A stretch of DNA of 64,000 bases from IMG/VR virus record IMGVR_UViG_3300027282_000088, positions 18,420-82,419 of that record. One strand, written 5' to 3'. How positions within the stretch are numbered: the stretch's first letter is position 1; each line of letters begins with the position of its first letter. A program made the translations under genes and the position numbers. The notes beneath the pieces were generated by a model. The model saw only the letters and a program-made list of their open reading frames with translations, ran no database searches and was not told where the DNA came from. The stretch is from a virus. Taxonomy: Duplodnaviria > Caudoviricetes. This document shows positions 870-45,705 of this stretch, piece after piece.

Positions 870-963
870 TTTGCACCCCGCTTCAGGGCTAACAGGGCCA
901 AATTTCTCTGAGAGCGGGGCCTGCAACCCGGCCTTTGTCCCGCAATGGCCTCTGAGCGCCTCA

Positions 964-987
964 TTAAATACCCCTTTAATACCCCCC
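964..987 (+). repeat. tandem 11-12 bp motif TTnAAyrCCCC x2
   Basis: ttaaatacccc-tttaatacccccc, intergenic. Confidence 0.7.
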
Positions 988-1134
988 TCGGGGATTTTGC
1001 GACCCAACCCCCGCCAGAGGTATGAGCGCACTCAGTGGGGCGTTCAGTGGCCTTGTGCATTCCGGGCTTGCCGCGCCCACCCCTCGGGCGCTACTCTGAT
1101 CCAAGGCGGCCTCTGCACCAGGACCGCTTTCCCC

Positions 1135-1177
1135 TGAAGTCCTTCATCTGATCTGGCCCGTCGCCCCGGCTTAATGT
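1135..1177 (+). promoter_or_regulatory. putative activator-dependent late promoter of the head operon (A)
   Basis: TGAAG-TC-CTTCA-TCTGA with a TAATGT -10-like hexamer 37 nt downstream; same geometry at 33333 and 42051. Confidence 0.7.
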
Positions 1178-1183
1178 CGGGTC

Positions 1184-2275: not shown

Positions 2276-2633
2276 TCCCGGACTGTTCATCAAATCCTAC
2301 GCCGCCGAGGCGGCAGTGCCCGGTCGCCGGATCGTCAAATTCGGCGCGGCTGGCGGCGTCCTTGTGGCCGCCTCCGCGACCAATCTCGCGATTGGCATCT
2401 CGGACCAGCTCGACGCGAAACTTGGCGATCTTCAGGACGTGATCATGTCCGGCTCCGCCGAGCTTGAGCTTGCAGGCACGGTCGCTGCAGGTGCCCCTGT
2501 CACGTCAAATGCCGCAGGTTTGGGCGTCGCAGCCGCCGCCGGGGCCGGAAACGTCGCCGTCGGCTACGCGCTGCAGGCCGGTGTCGCTGGCGACATCATC
2601 GATGTGGCGATTGCCCGCCACTCCGTCACCTGA
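2268..2633 (+). CDS. capsid decoration/cement protein (DUF2190-like)
   Basis: 121 aa, Ala/Gly-rich, between protease and capsid; paralog at 43179. Confidence 0.7.
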   Translation: MANPGLFIKSYAAEAAVPGRRIVKFGAAGGVLVAASATNLAIGISDQLDAKLGDLQDVIMSGSAELELAGTVAAGAPVTSNAAGLGVAAAAGAGNVAVGYALQAGVAGDIIDVAIARHSVT

Positions 2634-2653
2634 TCCTCAAGGAGCGCTGATCA

Positions 2654-3613: not shown

Positions 3614-3966
3614 GCTATCGCATCAAACGCACTGTGATCGCGGCCAAACGGCTGGAGATCGGCGACCAGGTAAACGCCAAGGATATCGGCACCGAGGCGC
3701 AGGTTGCGCGCCTCCTCGCCCTGGGCGCAATCGAAAAGGCCGGAGACGAGGCGGGAACCGTGACCCCACTCGAGATGGACGACGCACTGCGCGCGGCCTT
3801 GACCAATGCCATCAACGACCTGCCCGGCGACGCCTTCGACAAGAGCGGCAAGCCTAAGGTCAAGGCGTTGCAGGACGCAGCCCCCAGCATCGCCGACCGG
3901 ATCACCGCAGCCGCGCGGGATACCGTCTGGGCTGAGATGCAGGCCGCCGCCAACGCGGCCACCTGA
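3610..3966 (+). CDS. small head-associated protein
   Basis: ATGA overlap with the capsid stop; FDKSGKPKVKALQ motif; paralog at 44520. Confidence 0.65.
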   Translation: MSYRIKRTVIAAKRLEIGDQVNAKDIGTEAQVARLLALGAIEKAGDEAGTVTPLEMDDALRAALTNAINDLPGDAFDKSGKPKVKALQDAAPSIADRITAAARDTVWAEMQAAANAAT

Positions 3967-3982
3967 GAATACCCCCGAGGGG

Positions 3983-4027
3983 ACGCCGCCTAGGATCAGG
4001 CGTGACAGCCGGGAGAGACCGGCACCC
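3983..4027 (+). ncRNA. conserved two-hairpin RNA motif downstream of the capsid genes (compare Mu-gpT-DE motif)
   Basis: ACGCC/GGCGT stem then GACAGCCGGGAGAGACCGGCAC; the B copy shows a covarying ACGTC/GACGT stem. Confidence 0.55.
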
Positions 4028-4050
4028 AAACAACGGACCCGGAGGCGGAC

Positions 4051-4476
4051 ATGCCCTATCTTTTGCCCAGCGACATGATCGACCGCTACGGCGAGGGGTT
4101 TCTCGCCCAAGTCACTGCGCGTGACACAATGCCCGGGGTGATCGACACGGCGGCGCTGCAGGTGGCCGTCGACGATGCCGTCTCCGTCGCCGAGAGCTAT
4201 GTCGCGGGGCTTTATGATACGTCCAACCCACCGCGTGCGCTCACCATGCACGCCGCCGCGATTGCCTGGTATCGGCTTCTCGGCGCGCGGGCCGCTGCCT
4301 TTGACGGGGCCAAGGAAGGCTATGAGGACGCCGTCAGTTTTCTGCGGCAGGTGCGCAAGGGCGAGGCCTCGCTCGGCGACGAGACGCCCGGGGACACTGT
4401 GCGGGGCAACCCCCAGCTTCCGCAGATCAGCGCGCCGGAGGGCACCTTCAGCCGCGACAGCCTGAAAGGGTTTTGA
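4051..4476 (+). CDS. head-tail connector (Mu gp36/DUF1320-like)
   Basis: MPYL...DMIDRYGE start, YEDAVSFLRQV..G motif. Confidence 0.8.
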   Translation: MPYLLPSDMIDRYGEGFLAQVTARDTMPGVIDTAALQVAVDDAVSVAESYVAGLYDTSNPPRALTMHAAAIAWYRLLGARAAAFDGAKEGYEDAVSFLRQVRKGEASLGDETPGDTVRGNPQLPQISAPEGTFSRDSLKGF

Positions 4477-4477
4477 A

Positions 4478-4909
4478 ATGATCGGCGACGTCATCACCCG
4501 GATCGAGGCTGAGGTGCCCGAGCTTGCCGGTCGTGTCGACGGCGGGCGCGCCTTTGTCGATCTGATCCGCTCCAAGAAGCTGCCCGCGCAATCGGTCGCG
4601 GCCTACGTCTTTCCCTCCGGCATGCAGGGCGGGCGCGCCGATGCCGCGGCGGGCGTCTACAGCCAGATGCTGACCTATCGCACGAGCGTGGTGATCTTCG
4701 TGCAATCCTTTGACCGCACGGGGGCCACCGCCCTCGACAAGATCGACCAGTTCCTGATGCGCGTGATCCGCGCCTTGGCGGGCTGGGCACCGGGTGACGA
4801 GGTCGGCGTGCACCGTTTTGAGCGTGGCCAGCTCATCGAGAGCGGGGCCGGTCGCCTCGCCTATCAACTCGATTTCTCCATCGACGATCAACTGAGGATC
4901 ATCTCATGA
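4478..4909 (+). CDS. tail terminator-like protein
   Basis: Position before the tube gene; paralog at 46207. Confidence 0.65.
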   Translation: MIGDVITRIEAEVPELAGRVDGGRAFVDLIRSKKLPAQSVAAYVFPSGMQGGRADAAAGVYSQMLTYRTSVVIFVQSFDRTGATALDKIDQFLMRVIRALAGWAPGDEVGVHRFERGQLIESGAGRLAYQLDFSIDDQLRIIS

Positions 4910-5031
4910 CCAAACTTCCCACCTCCGGCGGATCCTACACCCGCGACGACAAGGGCGCGCTGAAACCTGCCGGGGCCAGCCCCAAGCCCACGTCCGCGCC
5001 CAAATCTGACAAGAAGGATGCCGACAAATGA
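4906..5031 (+). CDS. small hypothetical protein (41 aa)
   Basis: ATGA overlaps at both ends; frame conserved in the paralog 46638-46766; not in the ORF track. Confidence 0.6.
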   Translation: MTKLPTSGGSYTRDDKGALKPAGASPKPTSAPKSDKKDADK

Positions 5032-5963
5032 GCCTGCTCTGGAGACGCAAAGTCCTGCTCGCGAAGCTGGAAACCACCTATGGAACGGACGCCACCCCTA
5101 CTGGCGGCGACGCAATCCTCGCGACCGATGTGCGCCTGTCGCCGATGCAGGGTCAGGATCTCGACCGCAATCTCGACACGCCGCACGGCGGGCCCACCGG
5201 CACGATCCCGGTCGATCTGCACCGCACCATCTCGTTCAAGGTCGAACTGGCAGGCTCCGGCACCGCCGGAACCGCGCCCCGCTGGGGCCGCCTCCTGCGG
5301 GCCTGTGGCTGTGCCGAGACCGTGACGGCGGCGACGTCTGTGGTCTACAATCGGGTTTACTCGAACCTTGAGAGCGTCACGCTGCACCTCAATATCGGCG
5401 GCACGCTCTACGCCATGGTGGGGGTGCGCGGGACCGCCGCCTTTGACGTCTCGGCCTCGGGCATTCCCTATATCGAGTTCGAGTTCACCGCCCTCTACGT
5501 GGCCCCGGCCGACGTGGCGATCCCGACCCCAGATTTCACCGGCATTCCCGATCCGCTCGCGGCCTCGGATGCCAACACGCCCACCTTCACGATTGATGAG
5601 ACGTCGCTTGTGATGCGGAGCTTCAAGCTCACCCTCGCCAATCGCGTCGAGGCGCAATTCCTGATCGGTGAGGAGGAAGTGCTACTCGACGGGCATGAGA
5701 ACACCGTCGAGGCGCGGGTGCGTGCCGTGGCGCTGGCCACGTTCAACCCGTTCACCATGGCCGCCACCAAAGCCAAGGTCGCGCTCGAGATCGAGCACGG
5801 CAAGACGGCAGGCAACATCGTCAATATCGCCGCCCCGAATGCGCAGATGCAGCGTCCTGAAGGGCTTGAGGACGGTCAGGGTCGCAAGGAGTGGCCGCTG
5901 CGCCTTGTGCCGCTGCCCACCACCGCTACCGCTGCCGACCAGTGGACGATGACGCTCACCTGA
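5028..5963 (+). CDS. major tail tube protein
   Basis: 311 aa, followed by frameshifted chaperones and tape measure; paralog at 46763. Confidence 0.8.
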   Translation: MSLLWRRKVLLAKLETTYGTDATPTGGDAILATDVRLSPMQGQDLDRNLDTPHGGPTGTIPVDLHRTISFKVELAGSGTAGTAPRWGRLLRACGCAETVTAATSVVYNRVYSNLESVTLHLNIGGTLYAMVGVRGTAAFDVSASGIPYIEFEFTALYVAPADVAIPTPDFTGIPDPLAASDANTPTFTIDETSLVMRSFKLTLANRVEAQFLIGEEEVLLDGHENTVEARVRAVALATFNPFTMAATKAKVALEIEHGKTAGNIVNIAAPNAQMQRPEGLEDGQGRKEWPLRLVPLPTTATAADQWTMTLT

Positions 5964-5968
5964 GGGGC

Positions 5969-5991
5969 TTTAACGCGCCCTTCAACGCCAC
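5969..5991 (+). repeat. tandem 12 bp motif
   Basis: tttaacgcgccc-ttcaacgccac right after the tube stop. Confidence 0.6.
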
Positions 5992-6011
5992 TTTGAAAGA
6001 GAGTTTACCCC

Positions 6012-6341
6012 ATGTTCAAGATCGACCCGACCCCGGCCTTTACCCACCGCGTCGAGATCAAGGTGCCCACCGACGGGGGCCATGACTTGCAGGACCTGCA
6101 AGTCACGTTCCGCGTGCTGCCCGACGATGAAATCGAGGCTTTCGACATGCGCACCACACGCGGTGAGCGGGAATTTCTAGCGGCGGCCGTGGTGGGCTTT
6201 GACGACGTCGAAGACGAGAAGGGCAAGACGCTGCCCTACAGCCACAGCCTGCGCGACCGGCTGATCGGTCTGGCCTATGTCCGCGTCGCCCTGGTCAATG
6301 CCTATCACGCGGCGCTCATGGGGAAGCGGGTAAAAAACTGA
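6012..6341 (+). CDS. tail assembly chaperone (lambda G-like)
   Basis: Between tube and tape measure; ends in a slippery A-AAA-AAC. Confidence 0.8.
   Translation: MFKIDPTPAFTHRVEIKVPTDGGHDLQDLQVTFRVLPDDEIEAFDMRTTRGEREFLAAAVVGFDDVEDEKGKTLPYSHSLRDRLIGLAYVRVALVNAYHAALMGKRVKN
6332..6338 (+). promoter_or_regulatory. programmed -1 ribosomal frameshift site
   Basis: A AAA AAC heptamer before TGA; the -1 frame is open to 6700; identical at 48068. Confidence 0.8.
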
Positions 6342-6700
6342 AATGGGCCGGGCGGGCATGGGCGCGCGGCGACCTGATCGCTGATGACCAGGGCAGCGAC
6401 CATGATGACGAGGCGGCGTTCTGGGGGATCGACCCGGGCCAGCTCACTCGCGATCCGTCCGGCTCTGGCACTGGCACTGGCATCTGGCCGCAAAACGTCC
6501 CGGTCGTTCGGGCCTTCCTCGCGGTCTGCAATCAATGGCGCACTGTCTCGGCCGGGCTGGCCGGTTTCCGGGTCGTGGGCCTCGACTACACCGCTGCACG
6601 GGCGGGCCTGCGCATGAGCGGGATACGGATCACGCCCCAACTTTGGGCCGAGGTACAGGTGATCGAAAGCGCGGCCGTGGCCGCGATGCGGGAGAGCTGA
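6338..6700 (+). CDS. frameshift extension of the tail chaperone (GT-like, DUF1799-like)
   Basis: -1 frame reads LKWAGRAW...WPQNVPVVRAFLAVCNQWR...GLDY; stop at 6698-6700. Confidence 0.75.
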   Translation: MKWAGRAWARGDLIADDQGSDHDDEAAFWGIDPGQLTRDPSGSGTGTGIWPQNVPVVRAFLAVCNQWRTVSAGLAGFRVVGLDYTAARAGLRMSGIRITPQLWAEVQVIESAAVAAMRES

Positions 6701-6701
6701 C

Positions 6702-9311
6702 ATGACATTGGTCGCACGGGCCGAAATCCTCATGGACGCCGACCAGGCGAAGGCGGAGCTGCAGGCAACCGGCACCGCCGCCAAAGGGGCCGCCCAAGAC
6801 ATTCGCGGCGTGGGCACCCAAGGGGCCAATGCAGCGCGCGGTGTGAAACAACTCGAGACCGCCGCGCGGACCTCGGCAACGGGCCTGACCGCTGCCAGTT
6901 CCGCTGCGAATGTCAACACTGCTGCAACTCAGAAAATGGCCTCGGCCAATCGCCTTGCCGCAGGCTCGATGGGCAACCTGGTGGCGCAGGGCAATGACGT
7001 CTTCGTCATGCTGGCAGCGGGGCAGAACCCGCTGACACTGGCTATCCAGCAGGGCACGCAGATCACTCAAGTCATAGGCCCGCTCGGGGCTGCAGGCGCG
7101 TTCCGGGCTTTGGGCGGCGCGGTTCTTGCGATGCTGAGCCCCATTAATCTGATCACCATCGGCGCGCTCGCGGCGACGGCTACCGTGGTCAACTGGTTCA
7201 TGTCATCGTCAGAAGAGGCCGAGAGCTTCGCGGACAGCGTTGAAGCGCTCGAGACCCGCATCGACAGCCTGAAGGACAAGATCGCCGAGGCCTCTGCCAC
7301 CCGGCTGGAGCTGGCCGACCGGTTTGGTGAAGGCTTCGTTGACCGCGCGCAGGACATTCTCGACCGCATCGTCGAGGCAGAAAAGCGCGCGGCACAGCGC
7401 GAGGCGGCGTCAAATATCGGCTCGTTTGTCGGCGAGACGGGCATAAACCCCTCGCGTGGCGTCGGATTTAACCGCCGTGCCATCGAAGACGAATTCGACT
7501 TCGGCGGCATTATCCGAGACCGAAGCGTATTTGACGAACAACGCAGGCTTGCGGAAGCCGTCGCAGAGGACCTGATCGCGCTGCAGGACGCCGCTGGCGG
7601 GACAATTGAACAGCAGCAAGGCGCCATTGAGGCGCTCATTCTAAGCTACACCGCCGCCGCCGAAGCGGTGGGGACAATATCCGAGGCAGAAGAAGCCCGA
7701 CTTCTGACACTTGACCAGATGCGTATCCGCTTGGCCGAAGTCGCCGAGCTTCAATCGCAAAACCCTGAGGACAACCGCCAGTCCGAGGAAATGCTGACCT
7801 TCCTCGACCTGGTGACCAAAAGCACCGGCGAGCAGCTGAAGGCCGAGGCGGCGGCGCAGGCCATGCTTTTGACGCTGACCGAGCAGAATGCGGTCGCGGA
7901 GGCTATCGCCCGGACCGGCGCGGACAGCGTCGAAGTCTCGCGCCTACGCGCGCAGTTCGCCCTCAACGCCAAGCTGGAGGAGATCGCGGCTTCGGACGCA
8001 AGCGAGGCAACCAAGGAGGCACTGCGCGAGGCGGCTGAAGCTGCATTTGATCTGTCGACGGTAGATGTTTCCGGCGCGTTGAACGCCGCCGCAAATGAGG
8101 CAGCCCGCCTCTCGGCCGAGGTGCGCGGCGCTGTCGACGCAATGTTCGACCTGCAATCTCAAGGGCAGGCCCAGCTTGAGACCGCGCGTATCCGTGCCGA
8201 GTTCCGCGACGACCCTGTTGGACGTGCGGGGGCCTTGGCCGGTGCACGTTTTGACAGAGACACACAACCACTTCGCCGCGACGGCTTTGCGAACGCCGGG
8301 GAGGAAGCCTTTCTCAACAGCCAACGGCAAGCCGCCATCGAGCAGGCCCGCGAAATTGCGCGCCTCAACGAGCAGGCCCGACCCACGCGGTCCGGCAGCG
8401 GCGCGCGGGGCACATCGACCAACGAGACCCTGCGCGAACAGCAGGCCCTTGACCGGCTGATCGCATCCAAACAGCGCGAGATAGAGGCCCTGCGCGAAAG
8501 CGATCCGGTGCAGCGCGAGATGATCCGCTTGCGTGAACGCCTGACCGCCGCGACGCCAAAGCAACGTGCGGAGATCGAGGCTCTCGTCGAGGCCCATGAA
8601 AACGAGCGCGTCGCCATGGAGCGCAAGGAGGAATTCGGCAACGCCGTCGACGACGTGCTGCTCGAGGCCGAAAGCCTCCGGGACGTCTGGGAGGGGATCG
8701 GCGACATGATCATCCGCGCGGCCAAGGAAGCGCTCATCCTCGGCTCTGGCCCGCTGTCCGGTCTCTTTGGGGGCAGCGGCGGCGGCGGTCTCCTGAGCGG
8801 GATCTTCGGCGGCGGCGGGCTTGGCGATCTCTTTGACCTTTTCTCGGGAGGCTCGCTGCTCTCCTTCGCCAATGGCGGCCTGCCCGGCTTTGCCAGCGGC
8901 GGCGATCCTCTTGTCACCCGTCCCGGCCTCCTCTTGGGCGCAGGCACGGGCCGGGGCGACCGTATTCGCGCGATGGTGAGTGCCGGGGAATTCATCATGA
9001 CGGCCGAGGCCACAGCGCGCAACCGCGCGGTGCTCGAGGCCATGAACGCAGGCGCGATCATTCCGGGCTTTGCCGGGGGCGGCCTGCCCCTGCCTGTGCA
9101 GGCTGCGGGCGCAGCGCCGGCAAGAGGTGGCGGCGCGGGCGCTTCGGCGGAGGGCATGACACGCCTGCGGATCGAGCCGTCGGACCTGTTCCGTGTCGTC
9201 GTCGAGGACCGCGCGCGGGACGTGGCCGTGGACGTAGTCGACAACTTTTCAAACGAGCAGCTGCCGCTCCGGGTCGAGACGATCCGGCGCGACCCGCTGG
9301 GGAGGGGATAA
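6702..9311 (+). CDS. tail tape measure protein
   Basis: 869 aa, helical and Ala-rich; GQNPLTLAIQQGTQI lambda-family motif. Confidence 0.9.
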   Translation: MTLVARAEILMDADQAKAELQATGTAAKGAAQDIRGVGTQGANAARGVKQLETAARTSATGLTAASSAANVNTAATQKMASANRLAAGSMGNLVAQGNDVFVMLAAGQNPLTLAIQQGTQITQVIGPLGAAGAFRALGGAVLAMLSPINLITIGALAATATVVNWFMSSSEEAESFADSVEALETRIDSLKDKIAEASATRLELADRFGEGFVDRAQDILDRIVEAEKRAAQREAASNIGSFVGETGINPSRGVGFNRRAIEDEFDFGGIIRDRSVFDEQRRLAEAVAEDLIALQDAAGGTIEQQQGAIEALILSYTAAAEAVGTISEAEEARLLTLDQMRIRLAEVAELQSQNPEDNRQSEEMLTFLDLVTKSTGEQLKAEAAAQAMLLTLTEQNAVAEAIARTGADSVEVSRLRAQFALNAKLEEIAASDASEATKEALREAAEAAFDLSTVDVSGALNAAANEAARLSAEVRGAVDAMFDLQSQGQAQLETARIRAEFRDDPVGRAGALAGARFDRDTQPLRRDGFANAGEEAFLNSQRQAAIEQAREIARLNEQARPTRSGSGARGTSTNETLREQQALDRLIASKQREIEALRESDPVQREMIRLRERLTAATPKQRAEIEALVEAHENERVAMERKEEFGNAVDDVLLEAESLRDVWEGIGDMIIRAAKEALILGSGPLSGLFGGSGGGGLLSGIFGGGGLGDLFDLFSGGSLLSFANGGLPGFASGGDPLVTRPGLLLGAGTGRGDRIRAMVSAGEFIMTAEATARNRAVLEAMNAGAIIPGFAGGGLPLPVQAAGAAPARGGGAGASAEGMTRLRIEPSDLFRVVVEDRARDVAVDVVDNFSNEQLPLRVETIRRDPLGRG

Positions 9312-9982
9312 TGGCGGTCCAGGTTTGGCCCATTCCGACGTCTGGATTTTTCGACCTCTTGGGGATCGAAGAGGCCACCTTTTATCTGCCGGGCGACAGC
9401 ACAAGCTCTGTCACGGCCGGGGGCGAGGTCATCACCCATCGGCGAGGGGCACGGCTCTGGCAGGGCGAGGTCGTTCTGGGCAAGTCGGAGCCCGACGTGA
9501 TCGCGGCGCAAGACGCGCTGATCGAGCACCTGCTCGAGCCGGGGGCGTCCTTTATGATCTATGACCGCCGTCAATTCGCGCCCCAAGACCCCGCCTATCC
9601 GGCAGGCATCAACTGGGCCGCGCAACCGGTCACGATCAAGAGCCTCGTGCCCGGCAACCGCGAACTGAGCCTGCAAGGCCTGCCGCCGAACTTCACCCTG
9701 CGGCGCGGGCAGAAAATCGGGTTTCAGTATCTGACGAGCCCCGTCCGATATAACGTCCACCGCATTCTCAATGCGACCGTCACGGCGGATAGCACCGGGG
9801 CGACTGCCCGGTTCGAGGTGTCCCCCTTCCTGCGACCCGGCGTCGTGGTCGGGGCCTCAGTGGTCGTTGATCGCCCGCAGGCGCGGGCAAAACTACTCAG
9901 CTTCAAACCGGGACCGGGGCGCTCGCGCCGCACCGAGGGCGGCAGCTTCACCTGGCAACAGACGCTGGGGGGCGGCGTATGA
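9311..9982 (+). CDS. distal tail protein (Dit-like)
   Basis: First gene after the tape measure; W.G.V.L pattern. Confidence 0.65.
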   Translation: MAVQVWPIPTSGFFDLLGIEEATFYLPGDSTSSVTAGGEVITHRRGARLWQGEVVLGKSEPDVIAAQDALIEHLLEPGASFMIYDRRQFAPQDPAYPAGINWAAQPVTIKSLVPGNRELSLQGLPPNFTLRRGQKIGFQYLTSPVRYNVHRILNATVTADSTGATARFEVSPFLRPGVVVGASVVVDRPQARAKLLSFKPGPGRSRRTEGGSFTWQQTLGGGV

Positions 9983-10638
9983 GCTTTGATCTCGCGCAGA
10001 CAGATCAGTTGGCCGAGCGCAGCGGCACGGATGCGCATATCCTCGTGTTGATCGAGCCACGCGACCGGGTCACGGGCGAGATCGTCCAGATGGGGCTCTG
10101 GACAGGGGACGATCACCAGACCTTTAGCGTCGACGGCGAAACCCATCTCTTTCTGGGCGCGGGCAATGTGATCGAGGTGCCGCCGATCCGCGCCGGGATT
10201 GGCCTTGAGGTACGCCGCAACCGGGTCATCCTGCCGCCAATGACGGATGCCGCAAAGCTCGCCTTGCAGGTCTATCAGGCCTCACAGGCGCGGGTGCGGG
10301 TCTGGTCACAGCCGATGGATATCTACACCGGCGCGCCGTTGGGCACGCCACAGCGCGTCATCAAGGGATGGTTAGAGACGGCACCGGAGACGCTGGGCAA
10401 GCTCGGCGATCAGTCGCGCACGGAGCTGGTGATTTCCTCGGCCGCGCGGCGGCTTACGTTTCGCCAGCCTCTCTTCAAATCTGACGCGGCACAACGGTTG
10501 CGCGACCCGGCCGACAGGTTCCGCGAATATGCCGCCAGCATCGCCGACCGCCCGATCCCATGGGGTCAGGAAACGGTCGTGACCGAGATCCCGCCAGCGC
10601 CACCGCCCTTGAACGTGGACGGAGACAACCGGCGATGA
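9979..10638 (+). CDS. minor tail/hub protein
   Basis: Position; G.W.G.D...F...G...FLG.G pattern. Confidence 0.6.
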   Translation: MSFDLAQTDQLAERSGTDAHILVLIEPRDRVTGEIVQMGLWTGDDHQTFSVDGETHLFLGAGNVIEVPPIRAGIGLEVRRNRVILPPMTDAAKLALQVYQASQARVRVWSQPMDIYTGAPLGTPQRVIKGWLETAPETLGKLGDQSRTELVISSAARRLTFRQPLFKSDAAQRLRDPADRFREYAASIADRPIPWGQETVVTEIPPAPPPLNVDGDNRR

Positions 10639-11036
10639 CGGGACGCGTGCATCTTCTGCGGCAATTCCTCGACGCCCGGCGCGCGGTAGCATTCCGGCCG
10701 AGCCTGTCCGACTGCGCAATGTTCGCGGCCGACTGGATCGCCGTGCTGACCGGGCAGGATCCGGCCGCACGGTGGCGCGGGCGCTATCGCAGCATTGAGG
10801 AGGGTCGCACGCTTCTAGCCGCCGACGGGTTCGCGTCGCCCGCCGAGGTTCTGGCACCGATCCTGTTGCCGGGCGCAGGCTGGATGCAGGCGCAGACCGG
10901 CGACGTGGCCGTGCTGATCGAGGCAGGCGAGGAGGTCATGGGCATCATCGGTGGCGGTCATATTCACGCACTGCGTCCCGGTCGCGGCCTTGGCGCTGCC
11001 CCACTAAATCGCGCCATCCGGATTTATCGGCCATGA
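10635..11036 (+). CDS. NlpC/P60-like tail assembly protein (DUF6950-like)
   Basis: DCAMFAADW, GQDPA..WRGRY, GDVA, H motifs. Confidence 0.7.
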   Translation: MTGRVHLLRQFLDARRAVAFRPSLSDCAMFAADWIAVLTGQDPAARWRGRYRSIEEGRTLLAADGFASPAEVLAPILLPGAGWMQAQTGDVAVLIEAGEEVMGIIGGGHIHALRPGRGLGAAPLNRAIRIYRP

Positions 11037-14000
11037 GACTGTTTGCTTGGATAGCGGCACTCGTGCTCGCCTCGACGGCACCCGCTTCGGCCGGGCCGCT
11101 GGCCGCCGCCGCCGCCGCCATCTTTGCCGGGATCACGGTCAAAGCCGTCGCGCTCTTTGCCCTGCGGCTATTCGCATCGGTCGGGCTAAGCCTGTTGCAA
11201 CAGCGCCGAGCCCGGCGCGGGCGCAACACCGCCTTCGGGCTGCAGGTGACCGCGACCACGCGCGGCGAGCTGGAGAGCGAGACCACAATCGTCGGCCTCT
11301 ACGCCACCAAAGGGCATCTGATCTATCACAACAGCCACGGCCCCAATAACAAATACTACCAGACCGTCATCGAGCTGGGCGGCCTGCCCGGGGCCACCTT
11401 CAGCCGCTTGATGGTGGACGGCGTCTATTCCGAGTTGGGGACAGAGGAACATCCCGACTACGGCTTTCCAGTCCTCGCCAAGCGCGACCTTGGCGTCGAT
11501 TATGCATGGATCAAGGTCTACGACGGCACCCAGACCGGCGCAGATCCGACACTCGTCGCCAAATATGCCGAGGACCCCGAGACGCCCTGGACAGAGGCAC
11601 ATATCGGGCACGGCATCCCCTACGCGATCCTGACGATGGAAGTGAGCTCCAAGGTCTGGCCCAATGGAGCGCCGGAGCAGCGCTATGAGGAGAACGGCAT
11701 CCCGTTCTACGATCCCCGCCTCGATAGCACGGTCGGCGGCACAGGCCTGCACCGCTGGGACGATCCAACGACATGGGGGCCGACACGCAATCCTATCGTG
11801 AAGACCTACAACATCCTGCGCGGCCTGTCGCTCCATGACGGCTCGATCTGGGGCGGCGAGGCCGACGCAGAGGATCTGCCGCTTTGGAACTGGGTGCCGG
11901 GCATGAACGCCTGCGACGTGGACGTGGACGGGCGGCCTCAGTACCAGTCCGGCTATGAGATCAAATTCGCCGAGGACACGTCCGGAGATGTGATCAACGA
12001 ATTGCTCGCCGCCTGCAACGGCCAGATCGCGGAGTTCGGGGGCTTCTGGTATATTCAGGTCGGCGCACCCGACATCGCCGTGGCCGCGATCACGGACGAC
12101 GATCTTCTGGTGACGGACGCCGCCACCAAAGACCCGTTTCCCGAACTGCTTGAGATCTTCAACCGGGTCACCGCCAAATATGTCTCGCCCGGCGCGCTCT
12201 GGAACGGCGTGCCCCTCGATCAGATCCGCAATCCCGACTGGGAGGCAGAGGACGGTATCGTGCGGAATTTCGAGCTGGACCTTCCGGCCGTGTTTAACCC
12301 GGGACAGGCCGGGCAACTGGCCGAGGACACGCTGCGCGACCATCGCCGCTGGCGGCGTCACGCCTGGCCACTGCCGCCCGACTATGCCGGTCTGCGCCCC
12401 CTCAATACTGTGGTCGTCACCAGCGCCTGGAACGACTACGACGCCAAGCTCTTCGAGGTCACGGAGATCGTGCTCGATCTGCACCGGTTGACCATTGTCA
12501 CCTCGCTACGCGAGCGCGACCCGGATGATTTCGAGATCGACCCGGCGTATGAGATCCCCGACCGCGCCTCTATCCTGCCCCGCCCAATCCCTACAGACGC
12601 AGGCCTGCCCTTTTTCGACGCCGACGCGCGCATTGTCACCAATCAGGCAGGCACCCGTGCGCATGCGGCCGTCGACGTCTTCTGGGATGCCTCCGGGATC
12701 GCCGAGACTATCAAGGGCATCGCCATTGAATGCCAAAAGCGCGAGACCGAGGAGGAGGTCTGGAGCGGCACCGTGCTCGATGTCGAGCGTGGCGCAATGA
12801 CCATCCAGCCCGTGCCGCCACTCACGAACCTGCGCGTGCGCGCCAAAGCGCTTTCTGACAATCGCCGAGGCACATGGACTGCATGGATCTGGGTGACCAC
12901 TGACGACGTGCGTATCCAGCGGGCTGATTTTGCTGCCGGTATCGAACCCGTCACGATTGTCGAGGGCACGCTCCCAACGGTCAAGCTGACCGAGGCGATC
13001 ATGTTTGAGAGCAAGCTCTATCGTTGGAGCGGCACGGCCTATGTCGCCACGGTGCCTGCCGTTGATGTCACTGGGCAGTTGACCGATGCGCAGATCGCGG
13101 CCTTGGCGGCGGCAAAACTGACCGGGCAGATACAGACACCGCAGATCGCGACCGGCGCAGTCACGGACGCCAAAATTGCGGGGCTTGCTGCCTCGAAAGT
13201 TACGGGTCAGTTAACCAACGCGCAGCTTGCCGCCATCGCAGCCGCAAAGGTGACGGGGCAAATCACCGGTACGCAAATCACGGACGGCGCGATTTCGACA
13301 CCCAAGATCGCTGTGGGTGCCGTGACCGCCTCGCAGATCGCAGCAGACACGATCACAGCCGCCAAGATCGCATCCGGCACGATTACAGCAACTGAGATTG
13401 CATCGGGCACCATTACCTCTGCCAAGATCGCGGCAGGCACGATCCAAGGATCCAACATCGCCGCAAACACGATCACCGCGTCACAGATAGCGGCCAGCAC
13501 CATCACTGCCTCTGAGATTGCGACGGGTGCTGTTACAGCGGTCAAGATCGCCGCCGCGACAATCACGGGTGATAAGATTGCGGGCACGACGATCACCGGT
13601 GACAAGATCGCCGGCAATACGATTACTGCGGCCAAGATCGCCTCGGGAACTGTCACCGCCGCTGAGATCGCGGCGGGCACCATCACAGGCGACAAGATTT
13701 CCGCCAACACGATAACGAGCGCACTGATCGCGACGGCTGCGATCAACGCCGGGCAAATCGCTACGAATGCAATCACAACGGCCAAGATCAACGGACGCGC
13801 TGTCACTGAGCCGTCCACGTTCTTCGAGAACTACGGCGGCGGCACCAAGACGCCCGCGACAGCCACGGCATGGAACAACGCGACGTCTTTCATTGTGAAC
13901 GTGCCGGATAGTGGCTCGCTTCTGATGATTGACTGCCATGTGAATTGGCTGCTGAACGGCGGGCCAACTGCTGGGTCGTGGGGGCTGCGTCTGCTGCTGA

Positions 14001-14176
14001 GCGGGTCGCCCTTTGACTCTCAGGGTGGTGCACATTTTCAGGAGCTTGTTCCGTTTCGGCGAACAATCTCAGTGGGGACTGGCAATCAGACAATCACGCT
14101 GGAATGCCAGCGCGGCTCGGGTGTGCCCTTCCTGATCCAGAACGTCCATTCCGTCGCCACGATCCTCAAGAGGTAA
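11033..14176 (+). CDS. host-specificity / central tail tip protein (TipJ-like) with fibre extension
   Basis: 1047 aa; VYDGTQT.ADP.L, YDPRLDST.GG.G.HRWDDP.TW motifs; C-terminal decapeptide repeats. Confidence 0.85.
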   Translation: MRLFAWIAALVLASTAPASAGPLAAAAAAIFAGITVKAVALFALRLFASVGLSLLQQRRARRGRNTAFGLQVTATTRGELESETTIVGLYATKGHLIYHNSHGPNNKYYQTVIELGGLPGATFSRLMVDGVYSELGTEEHPDYGFPVLAKRDLGVDYAWIKVYDGTQTGADPTLVAKYAEDPETPWTEAHIGHGIPYAILTMEVSSKVWPNGAPEQRYEENGIPFYDPRLDSTVGGTGLHRWDDPTTWGPTRNPIVKTYNILRGLSLHDGSIWGGEADAEDLPLWNWVPGMNACDVDVDGRPQYQSGYEIKFAEDTSGDVINELLAACNGQIAEFGGFWYIQVGAPDIAVAAITDDDLLVTDAATKDPFPELLEIFNRVTAKYVSPGALWNGVPLDQIRNPDWEAEDGIVRNFELDLPAVFNPGQAGQLAEDTLRDHRRWRRHAWPLPPDYAGLRPLNTVVVTSAWNDYDAKLFEVTEIVLDLHRLTIVTSLRERDPDDFEIDPAYEIPDRASILPRPIPTDAGLPFFDADARIVTNQAGTRAHAAVDVFWDASGIAETIKGIAIECQKRETEEEVWSGTVLDVERGAMTIQPVPPLTNLRVRAKALSDNRRGTWTAWIWVTTDDVRIQRADFAAGIEPVTIVEGTLPTVKLTEAIMFESKLYRWSGTAYVATVPAVDVTGQLTDAQIAALAAAKLTGQIQTPQIATGAVTDAKIAGLAASKVTGQLTNAQLAAIAAAKVTGQITGTQITDGAISTPKIAVGAVTASQIAADTITAAKIASGTITATEIASGTITSAKIAAGTIQGSNIAANTITASQIAASTITASEIATGAVTAVKIAAATITGDKIAGTTITGDKIAGNTITAAKIASGTVTAAEIAAGTITGDKISANTITSALIATAAINAGQIATNAITTAKINGRAVTEPSTFFENYGGGTKTPATATAWNNATSFIVNVPDSGSLLMIDCHVNWLLNGGPTAGSWGLRLLLSGSPFDSQGGAHFQELVPFRRTISVGTGNQTITLECQRGSGVPFLIQNVHSVATILKR
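13283..13792 (+). repeat. 17 in-register 30-nt / 10-aa repeats (xxxITaxKIA)
   Basis: DGAISTPKIA through TNAITTAKIN, counted from the translation. Confidence 0.85.
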
Positions 14177-14179
14177 CGC

Positions 14180-14587
14180 ATGACCGTCAGCGCCAACATC
14201 TATAACCCGGCCACGGGTCAGATCACGGGCCACGTTGAGGCATCGGCAAGCACCATTGCCGCCAATGTCACGCCTGAGCGGGGCCTGTTTGTCGGTGCGC
14301 TGGCAGACACTGCGACACACTACATTGCGTCGGACCCGCTGCGCATCGAGGCGCGCCCGACGATCACGCCGCCTGCCACCACGCAAGACACCGGCTGGGT
14401 TTATGACCTGTCCCTGCTACCCGTCGGGAGCGCGGTAACAGTGCGCAACGAAGTGGGCGACGAGCTCGTCATCATGAACCTGTCGGAGCCTCTGACGCTG
14501 GTCGATGCAGGCGTGTACGCCCTCGCCGTCGCCCCGCCGTTTCCGTGGGTCGGGTTTGATGCAGAGGTGGAGGTAAGCGATGCCTGA
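14180..14587 (+). CDS. tail-fibre-associated hypothetical protein
   Basis: 135 aa coupled ORF after TipJ; no homolog in B. Confidence 0.65.
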   Translation: MTVSANIYNPATGQITGHVEASASTIAANVTPERGLFVGALADTATHYIASDPLRIEARPTITPPATTQDTGWVYDLSLLPVGSAVTVRNEVGDELVIMNLSEPLTLVDAGVYALAVAPPFPWVGFDAEVEVSDA

Positions 14588-14921
14588 GTTCCGCCAAAAT
14601 ACACCCCGCGCACAGGCCATCCGCGCCGCCCAAATCAAGGCGGACTGCAGGACCCTCATCCTCTCCGTGGCCGACTTGGAAACACAGAGCAACATCGCCC
14701 AGGCGGGCATCCTGTTCTCGACAGCCACCATCAACGGCGCGGCGCGCGCCGACGCGCTGGCACTCGCAGGCCTCATCGAGGGCGACCAGGAGCGCGCCGT
14801 TGCATGGACCGCGTGGCGCAAGGCGATGCAGGCGGAGAGCCGTCGCGCCATCGAGGACGGGGATGCACCCGTCTGGCCAGACGTACCAACCGGGGTCGCG
14901 GAATTCGCGGCCCGACACTGA
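14580..14921 (+). CDS. tail fibre assembly chaperone-like protein
   Basis: AW..WRKAM....P.WP C-terminus; paralog at 57027. Confidence 0.6.
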   Translation: MPEFRQNTPRAQAIRAAQIKADCRTLILSVADLETQSNIAQAGILFSTATINGAARADALALAGLIEGDQERAVAWTAWRKAMQAESRRAIEDGDAPVWPDVPTGVAEFAARH

Positions 14922-14954
14922 AACCACGAACACCCAAACCAAAAGGAAACTGAC

Positions 14955-15359
14955 ATGTCGACCTTCTCCACCTACCTCGAAGCCGCCCTGCTCAATCACG
15001 TTTTTCGCAACACCCCGCTGCCCAGCCCCGAGGCGGTGTATCTGGCGCTCTTTACGGCCGCGCCCACTGACGCAGGCGGCGGCACTGAAGTGACCGGCAG
15101 CGGCTATGCCCGCGCGGCCGTGACCTTTGCCGCGCCCGCTGCCGATCCGGAGGATGGCACCCGACAGGCGGTGCTCAACGGCCCGGACGTCGTGTTTTCC
15201 TCGACCCACGATCCGGTGCAGAGCGTTGTTGCCGTCGCCTATTACGATGCGGCGACAGGGGGCAATTTTCTGAGCTGGTCGGCAATCCCCCCCGCCGATC
15301 TGGGCGTGGGCGCGGAGATCAAGTTCCCGGCGTCGAAACTCAAGGAATTCCTTTCCTGA
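14955..15359 (+). CDS. phage structural protein (fibre/spike adaptor-like)
   Basis: STYLEAALLNHVFRN...VYLALFTAAP.D.GG..EV.G.GYAR family signature; paralog at 57414. Confidence 0.7.
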   Translation: MSTFSTYLEAALLNHVFRNTPLPSPEAVYLALFTAAPTDAGGGTEVTGSGYARAAVTFAAPAADPEDGTRQAVLNGPDVVFSSTHDPVQSVVAVAYYDAATGGNFLSWSAIPPADLGVGAEIKFPASKLKEFLS

Positions 15360-15577
15360 TGAACCGCGTCGCCTATGAGAGCAACGGCGGCCCGGTGGTG
15401 GATGGCGTTCGCGCCATCCACGCCTGGAACGCGGCTCTCATGGCGGCAATCGACCTGCTCGAAAAATACGAGCGCCCGAATGTGAGCCTCAAGACCTTAA
15501 GTTCGGACACGTTCGACGCGGGGCGGATGGATCTCGCGGCCTCACTCAAGCGGGATCTCCGCGCTCTCAAGCTGTGA
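15359..15577 (+). CDS. hypothetical protein (72 aa)
   Basis: Translationally coupled; conserved paralog at 57818. Confidence 0.7.
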   Translation: MNRVAYESNGGPVVDGVRAIHAWNAALMAAIDLLEKYERPNVSLKTLSSDTFDAGRMDLAASLKRDLRALKL

Positions 15578-15599
15578 CATCACGTAAGGAAGCCCAAAG

Positions 15600-17069
15600 A
15601 TGGCGCTGATCACCACGAATCTTAAAGCTCAGTTCGAGACAACCAACACGGTTGTCTCCCCGACGCTGTGGGTGGACGAAGTCGCCGGGATTGAGCTAGT
15701 CCAAGAACACCTTATGACTGCGCCAGTGTTGCGGACAGGCGAAGAGGGAACACCTACTGGAGCGAGTTATTTTCAGTTTGTCGGTAGCATTGACGGACTT
15801 GGGAATGACACCTTATACGACCACGATCTGCCAGACGGGGCGGAGCCTCGTACGATGTACATCGTTGCCCGTTATCCTAACCAAGTGAACGCCGGTAACT
15901 TCAACGGCGTGATGTATGGCAATCCCTCTACGCGCCAGGCATTCGGTATGGTGATGAGCGGCACTGAAAAAGTGCTCACCGACTTCTGGGCGGCCAGCTA
16001 TGCGTCGGTCGATAGTTTCAACGATGACCTTTGGCATGTGCTAGCGGTCACTTTTGACGGGGAAGATGTTGAAGGGTTCATCGACAACGTGAACCTGATG
16101 GGCGGCACCCCGGCCACGCTCAACACGGTACTGGAACGCCTCTATATCAATTACAAACTCAGCAACAACAGCGGTGCCTTCATGGATTGTGCCGCTGTTT
16201 TGATCTATGCCGGGGCGCATAATCCGGCGCAGTTGGCTGAGACGAACGCCTATCTTCGCAACAAGTATATCGAGGAAATCCCTAGTGGCGGTGGGACGGT
16301 TGTTTCTGAGCGCGCCGCATCGAGTGGCGGCACCTCGGGTCTGAACGCCGCTCCTGTCTCCGTGCTCTCACGAACCGCATCGAACGGCGGCACATCGGGA
16401 GCTACGGCGGCCCCCGTTATCGTGCAGGGCCGCGCTGCGACCTCCGGCGGAACATCTGGTGCCGACGCGGCAGCCACTCTCGTCTCGGGTCGCGCTGGCG
16501 CATCCGGCGGCACCTCTGGCGCGTCTGCAAGCCCTGTCCGGATCGCCACGCGCAGCGCACCGGGCGGCGGCGCGTCGGGCTCGCCTGCGGCCCCTGTGCA
16601 GGTCGCGCTGCGCGGGGCATCAAGCGGCGGCGCGTCGGGATCCGAGGCCTTGCCCCAGGCGGGCACTCAAACAAGCCGCGGCGCCACGTCAGGAGGCGCA
16701 TCTGGGTCTGAGGCTATGGCGGTCCGTGTGCAGACGCGCAGCGCCTCCAGCGGCGGGGTCTCTGGCACCGGGGCCATGGCCGTGCATGTCAGCGTCAAGG
16801 CGGCGGCGTCAGGAGGGCTGTCAGGGGCAGAGGCCATACCCGCCGCAGTCACACTGCGCGCGGCCAACGCTGGCGGTGTGTCCGGCCTCACAGCCGAACC
16901 CACGCTGATCGCGGCCCGGTCTGCGGTCTCGGGAGGCACATCCGGGTCAGAGGCCGCACCCGCTGACACAAGCCGGGTGGTGGATTTCAGGGCAACGGCG
17001 CTCTGGGATGAACCACGCTTTACCGCTCTTTGGGATGAGCCACGTTTTGTGGCCGAATGGAGAGACTGA
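15600..17069 (+). CDS. putative fibre: LamG/lectin-like N-domain plus 11 ~20-aa RxAxSGGxSG repeats
   Basis: ND..WHVL.VTFDG...GFID lectin-like pattern; Gly/Ser/Ala repeats; ALWDEPRF x2 tail. Confidence 0.65.
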   Translation: MALITTNLKAQFETTNTVVSPTLWVDEVAGIELVQEHLMTAPVLRTGEEGTPTGASYFQFVGSIDGLGNDTLYDHDLPDGAEPRTMYIVARYPNQVNAGNFNGVMYGNPSTRQAFGMVMSGTEKVLTDFWAASYASVDSFNDDLWHVLAVTFDGEDVEGFIDNVNLMGGTPATLNTVLERLYINYKLSNNSGAFMDCAAVLIYAGAHNPAQLAETNAYLRNKYIEEIPSGGGTVVSERAASSGGTSGLNAAPVSVLSRTASNGGTSGATAAPVIVQGRAATSGGTSGADAAATLVSGRAGASGGTSGASASPVRIATRSAPGGGASGSPAAPVQVALRGASSGGASGSEALPQAGTQTSRGATSGGASGSEAMAVRVQTRSASSGGVSGTGAMAVHVSVKAAASGGLSGAEAIPAAVTLRAANAGGVSGLTAEPTLIAARSAVSGGTSGSEAAPADTSRVVDFRATALWDEPRFTALWDEPRFVAEWRD

Positions 17070-17362
17070 TGGACGAGATGAAGACCTTCGAGAAAAACAC
17101 CTATTCCGCCGTCATCACCTTTCTCAGGAAGGACAGCACCGCGCCCGATCTCAGCGGGGCCGCTGTAGAGGCATGGGCGCTCGGCGCTGGCCCCACCATC
17201 CCCTTGGGGGTGAGTGTCCTGGACGGCATGGCCGGCGTGGTGCGCGTGTTCTGGCCTGCGGAGACATTTGCGGCGGGGCTCTACGAGGTCCAGCTGCGCG
17301 CCTCGAAAGGCGGCAAGACGGAAACCTATGCGGCGCGCCTGACAGTCGCCCGGTCGATCTGA
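17069..17362 (+). CDS. small beta-rich structural protein (BppU N-terminal-like)
   Basis: DLSGA.V, G.V.V.WP..TF..G.YEVQL pattern; paralog at 59483. Confidence 0.55.
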   Translation: MDEMKTFEKNTYSAVITFLRKDSTAPDLSGAAVEAWALGAGPTIPLGVSVLDGMAGVVRVFWPAETFAAGLYEVQLRASKGGKTETYAARLTVARSI

Positions 17363-17533
17363 AGACATCCCCCAATGTGTGGGGATTACCCGGTGGCCGT
17401 GAGCGGCCGCCCTACAGGAGGCCCCGAGCGTGCTGGAGGGCACGCCCGGGCACGCGGGGCCAGTCACCAAACATACCCCCGCCGACCAGAAACACCTCAT
17501 GGCCGCTCCCTGCCCCAAGGGGGCGGCGGGACT

Positions 17534-17752
17534 ATGAGGCGATTCGATTTGGAAGGTCTAGAACTGCGTTGCTGCGCATGCAGCCGTTTGCTATTTAAAT
17601 ATCAGAGAGGGGCGCAAATATCCGGCGTCTCGATCAAATGCCCGCGCTGCCGGGCGATGAATATCCTGAGGCCAAGAGCCCTTCCCCAAACGCGCGATGC
17701 GCAGAGAGAAGGAGCCAAACTTGACCAGATCGACCACACTCCCGAAACCTGA
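17534..17752 (+). CDS. com: Mu Com-like zinc-finger regulator
   Basis: LRC..C.RLLFK...IKCPRC CxxC..CxxC; at the right end as in Mu; the exact start may be the TTG a few codons later. Confidence 0.85.
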   Translation: MRRFDLEGLELRCCACSRLLFKYQRGAQISGVSIKCPRCRAMNILRPRALPQTRDAQREGAKLDQIDHTPET

Positions 17753-43563: not shown

Positions 43564-44523
43564 ATGAGCACCCCCACCCCCTTTGTCGTCGATCCGGTCC
43601 TGACCGCCATCGCCGTCAATTTCCGCAACCCCGACATCTCGTTCATTGCCGACGAGGTCATGCCGCGCGTGCCGGTCATGGCTACGGATTTCAAATGGAC
43701 CTATTTCCCGCCTGAGCAGATGTTCACGGTGCCCGACACGGAAGTCGGCCGCAAAGGTCTGGTCCAACAGGTTGAGTTCACCGGCGAAGAGCGCACCTCT
43801 TCGGTCAAGGACTACGGTCTCGACGACGTGGTGCCGCAGCGCGACATCGATGCCGCCCGCGCCCTGCGCGCCGCTGGCAATTCGGCTTTCGATCCCGAGG
43901 CGCGCGCCGTCGAGGGTCTGGCCCATCTGATCCAGCTCGACCGCGAAAAGCGCGTGGCCGCCATGGTGCAGGACGCGGCCAACTATGACGCGGACAAAAA
44001 AGTGGTGCTCTCGGGCGCGGGCCAGTTCAGCGATCCCACGTCCGATCCCATCGGCGTGATCTCTGCCGCCCTTGATGCCACCTTCATCATGCGCCCCAAC
44101 GTGGCCGCGATGGGGCGTAAGGCCTGGACGGCGCTCTCGACCCATCCCGATATCCTGAAGGCCATCAACCGGACCTCGGGCGACAAGGGCCGCGCCGGCC
44201 GCGAGGCGGTGGCGGAGCTTTTCGAACTCTCTCAGATCCTCGTGGGCGACAGCTATATCAACTCGGCCCGCAAGGGTCAGACGGCTGCCTTCGAGAAGGT
44301 CTGGGGCGGCAATATCGCCCTGATCCATCGCAACACTCAGGCCGGTCCGGACGGCACCGCCCCCGCATGGGGCTGGACGGCGCAGTTCGACGGGCGCGTC
44401 TCGGGGCGCTTCTTTGACCCCAAGGTCGGCCTCAAAGGTTCCACCACGCTCCGCGTAGGCGAGCAGGTCCGCGAAGTCATCGCGGCTCCGGCCACCGGCT
44501 ATCTGATCGAGGATGCGGCATGA
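43564..44523 (+). CDS. major capsid protein
   Basis: About 96% identical to A's capsid by manual count. Confidence 0.85.
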   Translation: MSTPTPFVVDPVLTAIAVNFRNPDISFIADEVMPRVPVMATDFKWTYFPPEQMFTVPDTEVGRKGLVQQVEFTGEERTSSVKDYGLDDVVPQRDIDAARALRAAGNSAFDPEARAVEGLAHLIQLDREKRVAAMVQDAANYDADKKVVLSGAGQFSDPTSDPIGVISAALDATFIMRPNVAAMGRKAWTALSTHPDILKAINRTSGDKGRAGREAVAELFELSQILVGDSYINSARKGQTAAFEKVWGGNIALIHRNTQAGPDGTAPAWGWTAQFDGRVSGRFFDPKVGLKGSTTLRVGEQVREVIAAPATGYLIEDAA

Positions 44524-44876
44524 GCTATCTCATCAAACGCACCGTGATCGCAGCCAAGCGGCTGGAGGCGGGAACGACCGTCCCCGCGCAAAAAATCGGC
44601 GGGGAGGCGCAGATTGCGCGCCTTCTCGCCCTGGGCGCAATCGAAGAGGCCGGGGACGCGGCAGACACCGCGCCGCCGCTTGTCCTCGACGACGCGCTGC
44701 GCGTGGCCTTGACCAATGCCATCAACGCCCTGCCCGGCGACGCCTTCGACAAGAGCGGCAAGCCCAAGGTCAAGGCACTGCAGGACGCGCTTCCCGGTTT
44801 GGCCGACCAGATCACCGCCGCCGCGCGGGATTCGGTCTGGGCCGGGATGCAGGCCGCCGCCAACGCGGCATCCTGA
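44520..44876 (+). CDS. small head-associated protein
   Basis: Paralog of 3610-3966. Confidence 0.65.
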   Translation: MSYLIKRTVIAAKRLEAGTTVPAQKIGGEAQIARLLALGAIEEAGDAADTAPPLVLDDALRVALTNAINALPGDAFDKSGKPKVKALQDALPGLADQITAAARDSVWAGMQAAANAAS

Positions 44877-44936
44877 AATTCCAGAGCGAAAGGATCAATC
44901 GCGAACCTCACGGGCACATAGGGCGACAACCAGACC

Positions 44937-45027
44937 CCTCCGGAGGCGATCCGAGTAGGCGCGGCCCACGCGAGTTGGAGCCTGCAACGTCTGAGGAATG
45001 GACGTGACAGCCGGGAGAGACCGGCAC
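44937..45027 (+). ncRNA. multi-hairpin RNA motif (extended version of 3983-4027)
   Basis: CCTCCGGAGG, CGCG/CGCG, GTTG/CAAC, ACGTC/GACGT and GCCGG-GAGAGA-CCGGC stems. Confidence 0.55.
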
Positions 45028-45052
45028 CAAACACCCAACCCGGAGGCGCGCC

Positions 45053-45280
45053 ATGGCCGAGACGATCAAGAGCACCGACGACACCCGGGTCGAAAACAGC
45101 CCCGTGCGGCACAGCTACCGCAAACTGGGCGACATCGAGAAGGCCCGGGTCGAGGCGATCAAGGATATCGGCCAAAGGTTTCTCGACGAGATCGCCGCCG
45201 ATCAGGGCCGCGAGTTTTCCCTCGCGCGCACCAAGATCGAAGAGGCCGTCATGTGGGCCGTCAAAGGGGTGGCCCGCTGA
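45053..45280 (+). CDS. Acb2/Tad1-like putative nucleotide-signal sponge (anti-defence)
   Basis: YRKL...E......IK..G..F...I and GRE.SLARTKIEEAVMWAVKGVA; GGAGG RBS; absent from A. Confidence 0.7.
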   Translation: MAETIKSTDDTRVENSPVRHSYRKLGDIEKARVEAIKDIGQRFLDEIAADQGREFSLARTKIEEAVMWAVKGVAR

Positions 45281-45705
45281 TGGCCTACCTGACTGTGCAA
45301 GACATGATCGACCGCTACGGCGAAGGCTTCCTCGCCGAAGTGACGGCGCGTGACACAATCCCCGGCGTGATCGGTATGACCGCGCTGCAGGTGGCCGTGG
45401 ACGACGCCGTGTCTGTCGCCGAGAGCTATGTCGCAGGGCTTTACAATGCAGACAATCCGCCCCGTGTCCTGACGATGCATACTGCGGCAATTGCCTGGTA
45501 CCGGCTGCTCGGTGCGCGGGCCGCCGCCTTTGACGGGGCCGAAGAGGGCTATGAGGCCGCGATCAGCTTTCTGCGCGAAGTGCGCAAGGGCGAGGCCTCG
45601 CTCGGAGACGAGACGCCCGAGGACACAGGCCGGGGCAATCCCCAGCTACCCCAGATCAGCGCGCCGGAGGGCACCTTCACCCGCGACAGCCTGAAGGGGT
45701 TCTGA
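45280..45705 (+). CDS. head-tail connector (Mu gp36/DUF1320-like)
   Basis: Paralog of 4051-4476. Confidence 0.8.
   Translation: MAYLTVQDMIDRYGEGFLAEVTARDTIPGVIGMTALQVAVDDAVSVAESYVAGLYNADNPPRVLTMHTAAIAWYRLLGARAAAFDGAEEGYEAAISFLREVRKGEASLGDETPEDTGRGNPQLPQISAPEGTFTRDSLKGF

Follow-up and report, generated by a model that had tools for sequence, protein, structure and literature searches.

A 75-amino-acid open reading frame (ORF) at positions 45053-45280 (+ strand) of a 64,000-nucleotide (nt) stretch of viral DNA (the window; part of the 82,419-base IMG/VR provirus record IMGVR_UViG_3300027282_000088) encodes a clear member of the Acb2/Tad1 family: that is, of the phage "sponge" proteins that take up bacterial alarm nucleotides. 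The window contains two tandem Mu-like prophages, A (~1-17,600) and B (~25,000-59,500), and the gene, hereafter acb2, lies in the head operon of prophage B, a Mu-like prophage of marine alphaproteobacterial type with Roseovarius as its host group. We assign the protein to the family because of its match to a hidden Markov model (HMM), its fold, the conservation of its ligand and interface residues, and its synteny with a proven acb2 gene. A sequence-only reading of the window had proposed an Acb2/Tad1-like sponge gene at this position, and the family it named is borne out by all of these.

The protein matches Pfam family PF24729 (Acb2_Tad1_hairpin) with an E value of 7.2e-17 and a score of 61.8 bits (curated cut-off 27), and residues 21-75 cover the full profile (1-58 of 58). 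A profile built from 65 homologs matches, in the PDB, PaMx33 Acb2 (8h2j; E 1.2e-4), Acb2_43 (9ptq; E 1.4e-4), and T4 Vs.4 (7uq2; E 1.9e-3); Tad1 chains match more weakly in the same search (0.016), and in the last helix only. The AlphaFold2 monomer model (mean predicted local distance difference test score 87.6) has two long antiparallel helices, at residues 27-46 and 53-74, as in the hairpin fold, with low confidence for the N-terminal 20 residues, and the top ranks of a Foldseek search with it are Vs.4 and PaMx33 Acb2 (probability ~0.9, E ~0.4). BLASTP found nothing between the protein and JBD67 Acb2 beyond a spurious local alignment (E 0.86), and the register of residues had to be established by profile comparison. 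NCBIfam has no model for the protein, and PHROGs places it in families of unknown function only (phrog_1454 and phrog_717).

The ORF is a real gene, not a chance ORF, because it combines the Pfam match (E 7e-17) with numerous relatives and with ratios of nonsynonymous to synonymous substitution (dN/dS) of 0.16-0.47 against ten sister alleles, and it is under purifying selection. Its relatives form 168 clusters at 90% identity, all of which contain PF24729, and 611 representatives at 50% identity (E <= 1e-3), and they are encoded at no fewer than 522 IMG/VR loci.

The residues that bind ligand in characterized sponges are in register in the 75-amino-acid protein. HMM alignment pairs Y11, L14, and K26 of PaMx33 Acb2 with Y22, L25, and K37, and pairs R67 and T74 with R53 and T60; an hhalign comparison with JBD67 Acb2 places the tyrosine and the lysine in that register too. 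In PaMx33 Acb2, cyclic-dinucleotide binding is lost with Y11A or K26A, binding of cyclic tri-AMP (cA3) is lost with R67A and lowered with T74A, and the dinucleotide and trinucleotide pockets are independent (PMC10312549). The tyrosine and lysine of the dinucleotide pocket are thus represented by Y22 and K37, and the arginine and threonine of the trinucleotide pocket by R53 and T60, a pair whose presence is required for cA3 binding but does not suffice for it (PMC10312549). In CmTad1, R88 and T95 (R-x6-T) bind trinucleotide phosphates, and five further residues, Q98, E99, M102, W103, and K106, form the interface that keeps the hexamer assembled (10.1101/2023.11.15.567273). The same spacing is found here for R53 and T60 and for E63, E64, M67, W68, and K71. 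Of 121 family members, all have K37, R53, T60, E63, E64, M67, and W68, 120 have K71, and 118 have Y22; the positions of the CmTad1 interface are thus invariant or nearly so, the predicted structure being that of a monomer only.

The motifs that had been read as an Acb2-like N-terminal half and a Tad1-like C-terminal half are real: the first aligns with PaMx33 Acb2 residues 10-40, and the second with Acb2_43, T4 Vs.4, and Tad1. A chimera of the two families is ruled out, since the C-terminal R-x6-T...EE..MW..K helix is common to both, and the Tad1-like half is best described, from its sequence, as the hexamerization and trinucleotide-pocket helix that Acb2 and Tad1 share. Residues 35-75 only align with Tad1 (~65-112). 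Tad1 (CbTad1, 7UAV; CmTad1, 8KBB) resembles the protein in this C-terminal helix, with its R-x6-T and QE..MW..K hexamer interface, and has in addition an N-terminal domain that forms the pocket for glyco-cyclic ADP-ribose, to a length of ~120-140 amino acids, a domain without counterpart in the 75-amino-acid protein. Because that domain is missing, the protein classifies as Acb2-type and not Tad1-type.

The reading we consider probable is that acb2 encodes a late-operon, translationally coupled, hexameric cyclic-oligonucleotide sponge with dinucleotide pockets containing Y22 and K37 and trinucleotide pockets containing R53 and T60. In this reading, of which the hexamer, its ligands, the timing of expression, and the suppression of defence are inferences, the C-terminal helix (E63, E64, M67, W68, K71) most likely joins the protein into a hexamer built as a trimer of dimers, and the hexamer would sequester host cyclic-oligonucleotide immune signals. 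Cyclic dinucleotides such as 3',3'-cyclic GMP-AMP (cGAMP) or cyclic UMP-AMP (cUA) would bind three pockets, each formed by Y22, L25, and K37 from two protomers, and cA3 and cyclic AMP-AMP-GMP (cAAG) would bind two pockets on the three-fold axes, formed by R53 and T60. Effectors of the cyclic-oligonucleotide-based antiphage signalling system (CBASS), and possibly those of Thoeris, would be kept silent. Translation of acb2 from the late head-neck transcript would use a ribosome-binding site that otherwise serves the downstream gp36-like gene, and the gp36-like gene would then be translated by stop-start coupling.

PaMx33/JBD67 Acb2 (PDB 8H2J, 8H2X, 8IXZ; PMC10312549) shares with the 75-amino-acid protein the Pfam domain, the helical hairpin, and, in register, the Y/L/K residues of the dinucleotide pocket and the R/T residues of the trinucleotide pocket. 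It differs in sequence (~20-25% identity) and in length (93-108 amino acids): PaMx33 Acb2 has a middle helical insert and a C-terminal tail, in which P90 contacts the base, and the 75-amino-acid protein, for which binding is a prediction, has neither, carrying instead an extra conserved N-terminal extension of 20 residues. T4 Vs.4 (PDB 7UQ2) binds dinucleotides, not cA3. Hadary et al. tested 46 Acb2 homologs, most of which inhibit CBASS and ten of which inhibit type I Thoeris (10.1101/2025.08.24.671296). The nearest of the tested homologs, Acb2_13 (IMGVR_UViG_3300010398_000020, 80 amino acids; 40% identity over 63 residues), has the same compact build, the same R..YRKL...IK and EE.VMWA.K motifs, and likewise a long N-terminal extension, the sequence of which differs. 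Acb2_13 scored as an inhibitor of all three of cGAMP-CBASS, cUA-CBASS, and type I Thoeris (Table S2, 10.1101/2025.08.24.671296). By analogy a broad ligand range is plausible for the 75-amino-acid protein, with the restriction that at 40% identity the activity range of Acb2_13 cannot be transferred.

The Thoeris activity of Acb2_13 speaks for an alternative in which the protein is aimed mainly at a TIR-derived signal (3' cyclic ADP-ribose (3'cADPR) of type I Thoeris, or another molecule derived from nicotinamide adenine dinucleotide) and not at CBASS nucleotides, with a pocket shaped by the conserved N-terminal extension, a part played in Acb2_43 by the N-terminal strand. Lysines that align with K37 and K71, and six near-invariant residues in the extension, are in keeping with this alternative, as is the distribution of defence genes described below. 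We nevertheless regard it as unlikely. Acb2_43 (PDB 9PTQ), which binds 3'cADPR only, lacks the tyrosine, has T-H-L-V in place of the Tyr motif, and has terminal beta strands; the 75-amino-acid protein keeps the CBASS-type Y-R-x-L motif (Y22-R-K-L), and its model contains neither an N-terminal nor a C-terminal strand, with the proviso that the N-terminus of the model is of low confidence and that there may be a strand that forms in the oligomer alone. Moreover, Acb2_13 blocks both CBASS systems as well as Thoeris, which indicates a broad range and not specialization for Thoeris.

The record consists of the provirus alone, and to assess which defences such a protein could meet we used Roseovarius mucosus (genome G001) and 151 sampled genomes of its family as host proxies. 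SMODS-type cGAS/DncV-like nucleotidyltransferases (CD-NTases) are encoded in 7 of the 151 sampled genomes, ThsB-type TIR genes, which are thus the commoner of the two, in 17 (R. mucosus among them), and PF24729 genes in 13. Because CD-NTase and ThsB-type genes both occur in the sampled genomes, we conclude that this group of bacteria has signalling defences against which such a sponge could act. In R. mucosus itself a strong ThsB-type TIR match (E 1.4e-25) lies at G001:C2:71647-71925, in the genome that carries L003, a sister allele without the tyrosine, and no SMODS CD-NTase match was found in G001.

The N-terminal extension distinguishes the protein from the classical sponges. Its six near-invariant residues are S7, D10, R12, N15, R19, and H20, and, because the match begins near residue 3-5 in most of the 150 listed representatives at 50% identity, this 'N-extended minimal' form of Acb2 is a sizeable subfamily. 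The motifs RHSYR, RHEYRVL, and EEAVMWAVK had no match in the part of Table S1 of Hadary et al. that was searched, a result that covers that part and does not amount to absence from the set. It is a reasonable guess that the extension contributes to the vertex pocket. A more specific proposal, which we offer tentatively and think rather unlikely, is that the six residues replace the classical Acb2 C-terminal tail in closing the vertex pocket, that this could give an undescribed ligand range, and that alleles with Y22P and K30A that keep R53 and T60 record ongoing re-targeting within one prophage lineage. Among longer database proteins (P0129, P0165, P0198, and P0254, of 212-256 amino acids, and many representatives of 100-300 amino acids), some have the 75-residue module at the N-terminus and many have it at the C-terminus; wrongly called start codons, read-through from one gene to another, or genuine fusions may account for them.

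The alleles in question come from sister loci. Y22P and K30A are found in L003:3001-3228, L009:1470-1697, and L010:2274-2501, and Y22C and G40E in L034:2501-2728; these alleles without the tyrosine keep R53, T60, and the interface helix. Because Y11A in PaMx33 Acb2 abolishes dinucleotide but not trinucleotide binding, they may, by analogy, be natural specificity variants. Loss of the tyrosine in sister alleles could also be taken to mean that the gene, while genuinely of this family, is inert in function or silent here, either as a decaying passenger or as a target or decoy that binds no ligand, and some of the Acb2 homologs tested do inhibit none of seven systems (10.1101/2025.08.24.671296). 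This is very unlikely for prophage B, the allele of which keeps every key residue, evolves at dN/dS 0.16-0.47, and has its ribosome-binding site and coupling intact.

The arrangement of the operon in prophage B is as follows: the major capsid gene (43564-44523, +; an ORF with a weak Phage_cap_E match below the curated cut-off), a conserved 118-amino-acid ORF of unknown family (44520-44876, +), a spacer of 176 nt, acb2, and a Mu gp36-like head-tail adaptor gene (45280-45705, +; PF07030 Phage_Mu_Gp36, E 1e-19). A Shine-Dalgarno sequence, GGAGG, lies at 45042-45046 (+), 6 nt before the acb2 ATG, and the acb2 stop codon, TGA (45278-45280), overlaps the ATG of the adaptor gene (45280-45282) in the sequence TGATG (45278-45282, +), which couples acb2 to its downstream partner. 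An alignment of 14 loci shows the ribosome-binding site before acb2 to have a homologous counterpart in prophages lacking the gene, where it serves gp36 directly. Prophage A has its capsid gene at 2654-3613, its 118-amino-acid ORF at 3610-3966, and its gp36-like gene at 4051-4476, and between the last two has only an 84-nt spacer with no ORF inside. The sequence-only reading had correctly described an ORF with its own ribosome-binding site before the connector gene, and the want of a gene at the equivalent position in A.

The position of acb2 is that of a proven sponge gene. JBD67, a Mu-like Beetrevirus of Pseudomonas, becomes sensitive to CBASS when acb2 is deleted (PMC10312549), and its gene order is major head gene gp32, small hypothetical gene gp33, acb2 gp34 (PF24729, E 3e-16), and Mu gp36-like adaptor gene gp35: that is, acb2 occupies in this transposable phage the same slot between the capsid block and the adaptor gene. 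The hypothetical gene of JBD67 in the position of the 118-amino-acid ORF encodes 64 amino acids. Among related Roseovarius-type Mu-like loci, across which the capsid is 95% identical in amino acids, acb2 is present in seven (L003/L004 (R. mucosus), L009, L010, L012, L014, and L016) and absent from A and six others (L006, L007, L008, L011, L013, and L015). Where present in these relatives, acb2 ends 2-3 nt before the gp36-like start. The arrangement of A and B recurs in a second provirus record (IMGVR_UViG_2772190778_000001, 79,585 bases), where L012, which has acb2, and L011, which lacks it, are likewise related Mu-like prophages.

More distant homologs (49-61% identity) occur in other phage contexts: beside portal/DUF2213, small terminase, lysozyme, or single-stranded-DNA-binding protein genes. 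In Sinorhizobium phage Aussie the homolog stands between the adaptor and stopper genes. A 47%-identical homolog occurs in a record classified in Caudoviricetes under the name 'Dunaliella viridis virus SI2' (L116; HQ332136.1 17428-17658), for which an algal host is given, a label that looks doubtful. We conclude that acb2 behaves as optional, mobile cargo, which therefore argues against an assembly role, and that it is dispensable for the virion. That the gene instead encodes a small protein of the head-neck module with an accessory part in virion assembly, like sponges in its hairpin only and with no counter-defence role, would suit its place within the head-neck block, its coupling to the adaptor gene, and the JBD67 and Aussie homologs among adaptor and stopper genes, but is highly improbable given its absence from A and from six close relatives with 95% identical capsids, its distant homologs beside unrelated genes, the proven sponge in the same slot of JBD67, and the identity of its conserved residues with the ligand and hexamer residues of sponges.

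The presence/absence difference between B and A thus stands, and the direction implied by 'inserted in B's head operon' does not: because the two most divergent relatives, L014 and L016, both carry acb2, loss in A-type phages is equally possible as gain in B. The capsid tree lacks resolution, and on the gp36 tree, which has no reliable root, two or more changes are required.

The spacer upstream of acb2 contains a non-coding segment of ~125 nt (44877-45002, +), found by alignment and nhmmer in part of the acb2-bearing prophages only, followed by a short hairpin element, GCCGG-GAGAGA-CCGGC with its flanks (45003-45030, +), identified from alignments and folds and common to prophages with and without acb2, including A (4004-4030). 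Together (44877-45030; ~155 nt) they are almost invariant in ten IMG/VR contigs and two Roseovarius genomes; loci that share the stretch include L009:1291-1472, L030, L031, L032, L034, L036, and L039. In these same loci the adjacent acb2 falls to 69-77% amino-acid identity and the capsid to 58-83%. The nhmmer search places the ~125-nt segment in 10 loci, an exact 23-mer of it occurs only in those 10 IMG/VR contigs and a 20-mer in the two Roseovarius genomes, and the acb2-bearing relatives L020-L026 lack the 5' 125 nt of the stretch. Indels that break the reading frame show that the stretch is non-coding. Where it varies, the positions lie in predicted loops, and at one pair a covarying change is seen (A-U to C-G in 4 of 10); the fold of a single sequence scores no better than those of shuffled sequences (z -0.78), Rfam has no match for the stretch in B or A, and searches around acb2 found no sigma-70-like promoter or terminator. 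With the Rfam, fold, and promoter/terminator searches negative, we dropped the idea of a known riboswitch or Mu-gpT-DE motif upstream of acb2. Possible roles for the stretch are that of a regulatory RNA and that of a recombination linker.

Two further observations concern the flanks of the gene. The 118-amino-acid ORF directly follows the capsid gene in both prophages (44520-44876 in B; 3610-3966 in A), overlaps it stop to start, and belongs to no family of Pfam or NCBIfam. Where acb2 ends and the adaptor gene begins, Rfam gives a weak match to the Ruegeria cis90 small RNA (45189-45304, +; 18.5 bits vs. a gathering score of 50, E 0.043), most likely due to chance.

The gene adds an ordinary member, not a new kind, to an anti-defence family that is large and well described: UniRef already gives close homologs the name 'Acb2/Tad1 hairpin domain-containing protein', Pfam likewise labels them as Acb2/Tad1 hairpin proteins, and thousands of homologs are known. 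With it, a marine alphaproteobacterial (Roseovarius) Mu-like prophage joins the phages in which the slot between capsid and adaptor genes is taken by an Acb2 sponge gene. The points of interest are the N-extended subfamily, the natural alleles that have lost the tyrosine, and the nearly invariant upstream non-coding element, and the tandem pair of prophages with and without the gene, together with the Tyr-to-Pro sister alleles, provides a comparison set for sponge specificity.
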